This document shows, in pieces, positions 16,650 through 17,606 of a stretch of DNA of 32,646 nucleotides; position 1 is the first letter of the stretch; each line of letters starts with the position of its first letter. Location: the NCBI GenBank assembly GCA_002731195.1, contig PCAI01000018.1, forward strand, positions 1 through 32,646, written 5' to 3'. The translations under genes were made by a program, and so were the position numbers. This stretch comes from Methanobacteriota archaeon. GTDB taxonomy: Archaea > Thermoplasmatota > Poseidoniia > Poseidoniales > Thalassarchaeaceae. The notes under the pieces were generated by a model. It did not search any database, was not told the origin of the DNA, and saw only the letters and a program-made list of their open reading frames with translations.

Positions 16650-17606
16650 ATGAAGAAAAGTGGATTGGGAAGAGGTTTAGGTTCTATGACAAATCTCGCA
16701 AAAGATGGACCAGATATTACAAGTTTTATCACAATTAAGGATAAACAAACTCCCACTGACTCTCCGAGAATTGCTATACTTTGGATGATATTTGGTAGTA
16801 TTTGTTTTGGTACTATGAACGCTCTTGTTAAATGGACATCTGTAGATGCAGATGTTTGGATGATAATTCTGATGAGATCTTCTGTGATTGCCATAATTGT
16901 TGCATTATATGCAAAAGTTAATTCCATAAATTTGACACCAAATGATTCTAAAACTATGTTTTTAAGATGTTTAGTTGGATTAATTGCAATGATATTATAT
17001 TTCTCAGCATTATCTAGAATACCTATCGGTCAAGCAGTTACTTTACAATATACTGCACCACTTTTTGTTGCCTTATTATCAGGTAGAATAATCAAAGAAC
17101 AGGTTTCTAAGTCGGTGTTAATACTATTGCTTACATCCTTCTTTGGAATAATACTTGTTATTTCACCCAGTACGGGAAATTTAGAAACAGATGCTTTACT
17201 TGCTCTCGGTTCTGGTTTTTTTGCTGCTCTTGCATATATTTATGTTAGGAAACTACGTCATACTGACTCACCTTCTTCAGTAGTTTTTTGGTTTGCTACC
17301 TTTTCTATATTGGGCAGTATTGTTCAAGCAGCACCCGATATCTTTTCACTTAGTTTAGAAACTATGGCGGCATTAATAGGAATTGGAATTGGTGCAGGAG
17401 GAGGCCAAGTTGGAATAACAATGGCTTATCATAAAGCCAATGCAGCGTGGGTTAGTGCATTTTCTTATCTTACTGTTATTATAGCAACATTTTATGGGTA
17501 CATCATTTTTGATGAAAATCTAACCACAACAAATCTTATTGGAGGTATTTTAATAGTTACTTCTGGAGTTTTTTTAGTGTTCCTAGCACCCTCAAATAAA
17601 GAATAA
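16650..17606 (+). CDS. EamA/DMT-family 10-TM permease carrying an N-terminal ParB-like GLGRGL peptide
   Basis: The body has two EamA-like 5-TM repeats (FGTMNALVKW..., TAPLFVALLSGRIIKE..., ...GGILIVTSGVFLV). The N-terminus MKKSGLGRGLGSM precedes a ~40-aa soluble extension. The ATG directly follows the parA TAG. Confidence 0.85.
   Translation: MKKSGLGRGLGSMTNLAKDGPDITSFITIKDKQTPTDSPRIAILWMIFGSICFGTMNALVKWTSVDADVWMIILMRSSVIAIIVALYAKVNSINLTPNDSKTMFLRCLVGLIAMILYFSALSRIPIGQAVTLQYTAPLFVALLSGRIIKEQVSKSVLILLLTSFFGIILVISPSTGNLETDALLALGSGFFAALAYIYVRKLRHTDSPSSVVFWFATFSILGSIVQAAPDIFSLSLETMAALIGIGIGAGGGQVGITMAYHKANAAWVSAFSYLTVIIATFYGYIIFDENLTTTNLIGGILIVTSGVFLVFLAPSNKE

Follow-up and report, generated by a model that had tools for sequence, protein, structure and literature searches.

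A ParB-like N-terminal peptide on an EamA permease encoded directly after parA in Marine Group II archaea: a candidate membrane-anchored ParA partner

The parA-permease junction and the N-terminal motif

We analyzed a 32,646-nucleotide stretch of archaeal DNA (assembly GCA_002731195.1, contig PCAI01000018.1, positions 1 to 32,646; the window) in which the gene of an EamA/DMT permease directly follows that of a Soj/ParA-type ATPase and starts with a short peptide identical to the ParB consensus. The window has a G+C content of ~36% and an archaeal gene content, including ribosomal proteins S8e and S10, SRP19, EF-1alpha, and a family-B DNA polymerase, and it originates from the Marine Group II (MGII) archaea, Thalassarchaeaceae. 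The permease start, MKKSGLGRGLGSM, lies one base past the TAG of the Soj-type parA, and the open reading frame (ORF) 16650..17606 begins MKKSGLGRGLGSMTNL. Together with the gene of a membrane protein that carries a SAP domain, these two genes form a triad with the following features.

13447..15609, plus strand: bitopic SAP-domain membrane protein, ORF of 720 amino acids, first gene of the triad (Pfam SAP, E = 2.9e-10, residues 25-57)
15696..16649, plus strand: Soj/ParA-type partition ATPase, 317 amino acids (Pfam AAA_31/CbiA/ParA, E = 2e-53)
15912..15932, plus strand: Walker A sequence KGGVGKT of ParA, residues 73-79 (from the sequence)
16647-16649, plus strand: parA stop codon TAG; the next base opens the ATG of the ORF 16650..17606
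16647..16652, plus strand: parA stop TAG abutting the permease ATG, translational coupling (from the sequence)
16650..17606, plus strand: tail-bearing EamA/DMT permease, 318 amino acids (Pfam EamA in two stretches, E = 2e-26)
16650..16760, plus strand: disordered cytoplasmic N-terminal tail of the permease, residues 1-37 (pLDDT < 50; predicted N-in)
16662..16688, plus strand: ParB-type ParA-binding motif G5-L-G-R-G-L-G-S-M13 (match to mapped ParB residues; conservation)
16707..16730, plus strand: second conserved tail island G20-P-D-I/L-T/S-S-F-I/V, residues 20-27 (76% pairwise identity)
16764..17582, plus strand: ten transmembrane helices of the DMT fold, residues 39-311 (AlphaFold2 secondary structure)

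The initial annotation of the window had reported a ParB-like GLGRGL N terminus on an EamA permease whose ATG comes right after the TAG of a KGGVGKT-containing ParA, and the sequence, Pfam, and an AlphaFold2 model agree with that description, giving a tail of 37 residues and ten helices. Pfam found nothing besides EamA on the permease, with no ParBc, helix-turn-helix (HTH), or other domain. The ParB/Srx CTPase domain (GxxRxxA, ENLQRE) was absent by Pfam, and no HTH for parS binding or C-terminal dimerization domain was present, residues 39-311 being occupied by the ten transmembrane helices; the lack of an HTH, a ParB box, and a dimerization domain had also been noted initially. NCBIfam gave weak, sub-threshold DMT matches (2A78, YddG, and RhtA). 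The AlphaFold2 model, built with 50 homologues (predicted template-modeling score, pTM, 0.71), had a predicted local distance difference test (pLDDT) value of < 50 for residues 1-37, followed by ten helices within residues 39-311. Lysine and arginine residues numbered 17 on the N-terminal side versus 2 on the opposite side (positive-inside), so the tail should face the cytoplasm, and the N-in orientation assumed at the outset is the predicted one. Many columns of the transmembrane core were invariant, including GAGGGQxGITMAYHxANAAWVSAFSY.

We scanned one genome per GTDB species, which gave 78 MGIIb loci, and examined ~95 related loci, more distant clades included. The motif was present in ~64 of the 78 species-level genomes, and nearly all of the 120 closest protein clusters (66-99% identity) started with x(2-8)-[KR]-G-L-G-R-G-L; the named members of these clusters were Thalassarchaeaceae, Poseidoniales, or MGII. 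The family consensus was [KRS]-G-L-G-R-G-L-[ED]-[ES]-[IVML], located 4 to 6 residues from the N terminus in a gene that occupies the position of parB. A loose regular expression for the motif matched a single ORF among all ORFs of at least 20 amino acids in the six frames of the 32.6-kb window, and the motif is far beyond chance.

Among 64 distinct peptide-bearing DNA sequences, L2, G3, and L6 of the motif were invariant, R4 was found in 63 of 64, and the +9 position was always I, V, M, or L, while all six leucine, all four glycine, and five arginine codons were used. Numbered along the permease, L6, G7, R8, and L10 were invariant in the homologue alignment. Pairwise identity was 73% in the motif island, 76% in the second island, 25 to 33% in the linkers, and 73% in the transmembrane core, a pattern of two conserved islands within fast-evolving linkers that marks short linear motifs in disordered tails. 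An in-frame stop stood directly ahead of the ATG in many loci, and the next methionine lay within or past the motif, so the motif sits at the extreme N terminus and is translated. Decaying intermediates were absent across the loci examined, in which the tail was either intact or cleanly removed. Because the residues are invariant while the synonymous codons are saturated, the motif is selected (purifying) and translated and is not a deletion scar. Purifying selection on the peptide, for which the initial annotation had proposed a test, was thus found, and its caveat that the true start might lie downstream of the motif is excluded by the conserved residues, the varied codons, and the in-frame stop.

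The second island had the family consensus GP[DN]LSS[FY]V, with P21 invariant, and it was always lost together with the GLGRGL motif in clades lacking the peptide. We know of no counterpart of this island in ParB. Profile searches gave a divided answer: the permease body matched EamA as expected, but the tail alone (40 to 45 residues) matched nothing significantly among NCBIfam hidden Markov models and PDB sequences. Such tail-only searches are uninformative, since a motif of 9 residues gives profile statistics too little to work with and goes unscored by ParB models. At 50% clustering, the motif was confined to MGII members among the best 150 representatives listed, and the nearest non-MGII EamA relatives had no peptide. 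The four of these with a neighborhood that was examined (P0124, P0127, P0130, and the Nitrosomonas loci) were not beside parA. An ancestral parA-parB-eamA arrangement was considered as well and was not present in the neighborhoods of the nearest non-MGII relatives.

The order SAP-domain membrane protein, ParA, permease was constant in the ~95 related loci wherever the contig reached, universal in the 78 GTDB species and the more distant clades; a more distant peptide-bearing clade (P0123, 53% identity) had the same triad. The stop of parA and the start of the permease gene abutted, overlapped, or were no more than ~8 nucleotides apart in every related locus. A Shine-Dalgarno-like GGAG lies 10 nucleotides 5' of the permease ATG, within the 3' end of parA. 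The conserved C terminus of ParA, RWGL/RWSLV (16629..16646), is encoded there, and its codons provide a GGAG or GGGG of this type ~10 nucleotides ahead of the permease start.

ParA, its mapped ParB interface, and lineages without the peptide

The best PDB matches of the window ParA were the chromosomal ParA of Myxococcus xanthus (8RAY, 2.4e-59), Thermus thermophilus Soj (1WCV, 1.5e-48), and Helicobacter pylori Soj (6IUB, 1.8e-43), and Soj structures outscored MinD, McdA, and plasmid ParAs. Equivalents of K31, K36, D58, D60, and N64 in the M. xanthus numbering (Mx) were invariant in 82 to 85 MGII ParAs (D58, D60, and N64 correspond to D100, D102, and N106 of the window ParA), and the predicted nonspecific DNA-binding residue, Mx R238, was R or K in all of them. 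Judged by these residues, the catalytic set is complete and ParA is a genuine Soj-type enzyme. Residues 1-62 (15696..15881) form a conserved acidic N-terminal extension with the motifs LPxV..APLI[IV]DVEFxE and PLELPxSxPTPxGRARVVTV.

In M. xanthus, ParB residues 11-19, within a disordered tail of residues 1-35, bind ParA; L11, L15, L18, and I19 are required for binding and R13 is required for ATPase stimulation, a 20-residue ParB peptide is sufficient when DNA is present, and strong activation in bacteria requires that a closed ParB dimer present two peptides side by side (Schnabel et al., PMC12462528). Permease residues L6, R8, L10, and M/V/I13 match ParB L11, R13, L15, and L18, that is, four of the five mapped residues; the I19 equivalent, permease position 14, is polar or variable and unmatched. 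On the side of ParA, the MGII enzymes retain the pocket residues Mx L150, G151, L152, L181, L192, and E117, with the changes L155 to I, E82 to D, and L187 to E, the last of which is also found in T. thermophilus Soj. Mx Y81, which docks ParB R13 and is invariant in bacteria, is Arg in every MGII ParA; the corresponding residue of the window ParA is R123 (16062..16064). An interface between the peptide and ParA is plausible on these alignments, although it would not be canonical in detail.

The tail was not present in all of the lineages. In a nested subclade of 14 species, placed among peptide-bearing lineages (L037, L045, L048, L052, L055, L057, L058, L061, L062, L064-L066, L068, and L069), the tail-coding DNA had been removed cleanly, the permease started ...(L/M)SxSEPVDTP directly before the first transmembrane helix, and parA was still overlapping or abutting. 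In a large and abundant sister clade the permease started MNDxDSPR... with no tail, likewise right ahead of the first transmembrane helix, within the same triad and syntenic block; in its loci L085, L088, L089, L092, and L094 a nitroreductase gene was inserted after the permease. The motif was lost separately in the metagenomic variant P0121. In an outgroup-rooted neighbor-joining tree of the permease a peptide-bearing lineage was basal, which implies two to three losses; a midpoint-rooted ParA tree makes a single gain plus later losses possible. A relocated LG[RK]GL was not found in any of the six frames within +/-6 to 10 kb of the peptide-less loci. The sequence GLGETL upstream of the P0121 start (L086) was considered as a decayed motif and rejected, being the 3' end of parA in another frame.

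Mx L152, which contacts the peptide directly in M. xanthus (PMC12462528), corresponds to L194 (16275..16277) of the window ParA. It was Leu in 66 of 66 peptide-bearing lineages and Ile in 8 of the 14 nested peptide-less sequences and 5 of 5 of the other peptide-less clade, which are independent losses. The sole other conserved column that changed in the nested peptide-less clade was D114N (D114, 16035..16037), and D114 adjoins the equivalent of H. pylori F52, the residue that the crystal structure shows stacked on ParB Arg9. Co-variation of the ParA pocket with the presence of the peptide is suggestive. The pocket was largely conserved in peptide-less ParAs, which may reflect a structural constraint or another partner.

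The SAP-domain protein, ParB and parS, and the surrounding genes

The SAP protein was encoded upstream of parA in every locus with sufficient contig, peptide-less lineages included, and its family comprised 327 clusters, all named ones being MGII. Its true start is likely the ATG at 13480. The AlphaFold2 model had SAP helices, a disordered stretch at residues 49-157, a transmembrane helix at residues 158-179, and a beta-rich outer domain for which no convincing fold match was found in the PDB (best, DUF1849, TM 0.15/0.36). The SAP domain is N-terminal, cytoplasmic, and of the DNA-binding type, and the linker that follows is acidic. Within this linker lies a conserved short helix, IGDAVDKLI at ~13711..13737, with the variants IDDAIDRLI and REKVEEVLSRI, whose hydrophobic residues have the spacing i, i+4, i+7, i+8 of ParB L11/L15/L18/I19. 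In place of the ParB Arg the helix has acidic residues (i+1/i+2), while an Arg occupies the Mx Y81 site of MGII ParA; the helix could be a charge-swapped ParA-binding helix.

The initial annotation had allowed that related genomes might carry a full parB between parA and the permease, in which case the peptide would be a deletion scar; none was found in the ~95 related loci. Pfam found no ParB domain on any ORF of the window. Searched with the bacterial parS consensus, the window held no site with fewer than 3 mismatches, and four matches with 3 mismatches were at chance level, although an archaeal site could differ. Repeats around the operon did not exceed chance, and the GC skew across the window followed the coding strand only, with no origin signal. 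In the MGII core genome, 'parA, soj' is recorded in 150 of 158 and 86 of 92 genomes (Tully 2019, PMC6336850, Supplementary Data 10), and 15 supplementary files of that study contain no entry for parB/K03497 (Tully 2019, PMC6336850).

The triad lies inside a syntenic block of ~30 kb with the order AsnC, RsmB, tyrosine recombinase, RimK, triad, PUA, S8e, SRP19, PolB, EF-1alpha, and S10. Just upstream of the triad in the window are a tyrosine recombinase of the Phage_integrase family, possibly Xer-like (11154..12305, minus strand), and a RimK ATP-grasp ligase (12401..13351, minus strand), and both were found at this place in all longer related loci examined, peptide-less clades included. Downstream, 17611..18210 (minus strand) encodes a conserved hypothetical protein of 199 amino acids with a C-terminal transmembrane segment and no Pfam match; this gene and the permease gene converge, and it keeps its syntenic place in most related loci. 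A PUA-domain ORF at 18224..18925 (minus strand, 233 amino acids from a TTG) overlaps the S8e gene at 18829..19224 (plus strand) by ~97 nucleotides; its homologues are annotated at 168 amino acids (L089, L092, and L094), so the true PUA start is probably near 18730.

A candidate membrane-anchored partner of ParA

With moderate confidence, we favor reading the tail as a ParB-derived peptide for ParA interaction and activation that is carried by a membrane protein and would couple a nucleoid-bound orphan ParA to the membrane within the three-gene module. We infer that the peptide binds ParA and activates it, and the cellular role and the origin described next are proposed on the same footing. The first ~13 residues of the permease would act as the ParB-type ParA-interaction motif (L-G-R-G-L-x-x-hydrophobic) at the end of the ~37-residue cytoplasmic tail and would meet ATP-bound ParA dimers located on the nucleoid. 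Transient tethers between nucleoid and membrane would form, ATP hydrolysis would probably be triggered, and the membrane would take over the role that the ParB-parS complex has in bacteria. The likely origin would be the horizontal acquisition of a parAB operon, followed by loss of the parB body and joining of its opening codons to the next gene. A further-reaching version, which we regard as unlikely, is a ParB-less, membrane-anchored partition machine (a "split ParB") in which the SAP protein would hold DNA, the permease would carry the ParA-activating peptide, and the nucleoid Soj-type ParA would cycle between them, so that chromosomes would be segregated or positioned by tethers and not as ParB-parS cargo.

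The triad resembles bacterial ParABS (the Soj-Spo0J systems of M. xanthus, T. thermophilus, and H. pylori) in the ParA subfamily, in the partner gene directly 3' of parA, and in the disordered N terminus of the partner, which bears L-G-R-G-L-x-x-hydrophobic. It differs in that the MGII partner lacks the ParB/Srx CTPase, HTH, and dimerization domains and is instead a 10-transmembrane-helix DMT permease, in that no parS was found in the window and the Arg-docking Tyr of ParA is an Arg, and in the additional SAP-domain membrane protein upstream. SegAB of Sulfolobus and HpaAB of Haloferax volcanii likewise combine an archaeal ParA-type ATPase with an adjacent non-ParB partner whose first ~12 residues contact the ATPase, as predicted or demonstrated, and the HpaA ATPase is of bacterial origin (bioRxiv 10.1101/2025.11.19.689047). 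However, both SegB and HpaB are soluble proteins that bind DNA site-specifically (ribbon-helix-helix or HTH) and have N-terminal sequences of their own, whereas the MGII partner is an integral membrane transporter with the canonical bacterial ParB motif. McdB, PomX/PomY, MinE, ParP, and TlpT also address a ParA/MinD dimer through a short peptide in a flexible N-terminal region, and the genes lie together, but these partners are soluble or peripheral and attached to cargo, and their peptides are unlike the ParB consensus. Compared with EamA/DMT transporters such as YddG and RhtA-like proteins, the permease has the same two EamA repeats, ten transmembrane helices, and termini predicted inside, while the ordinary members examined do not have the ~37-residue tail. 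To our knowledge, no polytopic permease is among the partners of ParA/MinD ATPases, and none was found in the searched literature. In the literature searched we found no earlier description of what these sequences suggest, a ParA system with its activating peptide on a polytopic permease in a ParB-less archaeon; the initial annotation, too, knew of no ParA partner of such architecture.

Several observations weigh against this reading. The tail was lost in two to three lineages in which the catalytic residues of ParA, the gene order, and the stop/start contact were intact. Because these tail-less clades keep both an intact ParA and the parA/permease coupling, the peptide is dispensable there for whatever ParA does, and since it was lost with ParA intact, it is not the sole determinant of ParA function. 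The site on MGII ParA that would dock the ParB Arg is altered (Mx Y81 to R, D110 to S/T/N, and V116 to Q), and a DMT permease has one peptide per molecule versus the two juxtaposed on the bacterial ParB dimer. The enrichment of substitutions in the ParA pocket was not robust, with p = 0.006 under a loose criterion versus p = 0.089 under a strict one with five sequences of the second peptide-less clade included. ParB is apparently absent from whole MGII genomes, a statement that rests on a published table. Finally, the acidic SAP helix together with the Y81R change in ParA makes it conceivable that ParA has a second, or its main, partner in the SAP protein, which may rank equal to the permease or be the principal one. 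Of the initial proposal that the permease acts as the partner of ParA, the conserved peptide, the synteny, and the intact Soj-type ParA support a candidate partner, but the claim that it is the only one is weakened by the tail losses, Y81R, and the SAP protein.

This last possibility makes a credible if rather unlikely alternative, in which ParA of all MGII has the SAP protein as its principal partner and the permease peptide is an auxiliary activator that is kept or discarded by lineage. The SAP gene lies ahead of parA in every lineage, those without the peptide included, the SAP linker has a conserved helix with ParB-like spacing and a possible charge swap with the ParA Arg at Mx Y81, the ParA pocket is conserved in peptide-less clades, and dual-activator systems are known (PomX and PomY of PomZ). 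However, the spacing i, i+4, i+7, i+8 is generic for amphipathic helices, and where the permease motif is present it is constrained like the transmembrane core, which is more than expected of a dispensable accessory. ParA-type ATPases also position other cellular structures: carboxysomes are positioned by the ParA-like McdA, chemoreceptor arrays by ParC/PpfA, and PomXY clusters by PomZ. The same contact between peptide and ParA might accordingly have an output other than chromosome segregation, with nucleoid-bound ParA positioning the permease or a complex of permease and SAP protein as its cargo. Many partners of ParA/MinD ATPases are indeed cargo adaptors with an N-terminal peptide (PMC12462528; HpaB), the peptide sits on an otherwise complete and highly conserved transporter, and its tolerated loss in some clades fits a nonessential positioning function. 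We nevertheless consider positioning of the permease quite unlikely: there is no obvious reason for partitioning a generic DMT permease, ParA belongs to the MGII core and is fully constrained without the peptide, so positioning this tail would not be its main job, and the always-linked DNA-binding SAP membrane protein points to DNA and not to the placement of a transporter.

Distinctly improbable, too, is a function of the tail that has nothing to do with ParA, such as autoregulation as a plug, lipid binding, or docking of another protein, with a likeness to ParB that is either historical, from a repurposed parB remnant, or convergent. Such a tail could be lost in lineages with an unchanged ParA, as was found, and it would fit the changed arginine-docking residue of ParA and the second island GPDLSSFV, which has no ParB counterpart and implies a further interaction. 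But an exact LGRGLxx-hydrophobic at the extreme N terminus of a gene coupled to parA is very unlikely without a link to ParA, the invariant residues are those needed for ParA binding in bacteria, and the L152I change in ParA is convergent in both peptide-less lineages. The idea of a neutral deletion scar or annotation artifact, either a decaying parB remnant or an untranslated motif, draws on a position that is exactly that of the parB start in bacterial operons and on the deletion of the tail in some lineages. It is effectively refuted by the invariant residues written with all synonymous codons in 64 sequences, by motif conservation equal to that of the transmembrane core, by the in-frame stop before the ATG in many loci with the next methionine inside or after the motif, and by the lack of decaying intermediates, the tail being intact or cleanly gone. 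The preferred reading, a ParB-derived peptide on the permease that addresses ParA, points to a candidate membrane-anchored ParA partner of a kind not previously described.

Chromosome segregation in archaea is poorly understood, and Marine Group II archaea, which are uncultured, are among the most abundant planktonic archaea. The locus offers a concrete and testable hypothesis of how an orphan bacterial-type ParA may work without ParB, and the lineages without the peptide provide natural evolutionary controls in the manner of deletion mutants. If true, this would be the first case found in which the canonical ParB activation peptide was grafted onto an integral membrane protein. The peptide would then be a portable module, and the range of ParA partners would extend from adaptors bound to DNA or organelles to a polytopic permease.

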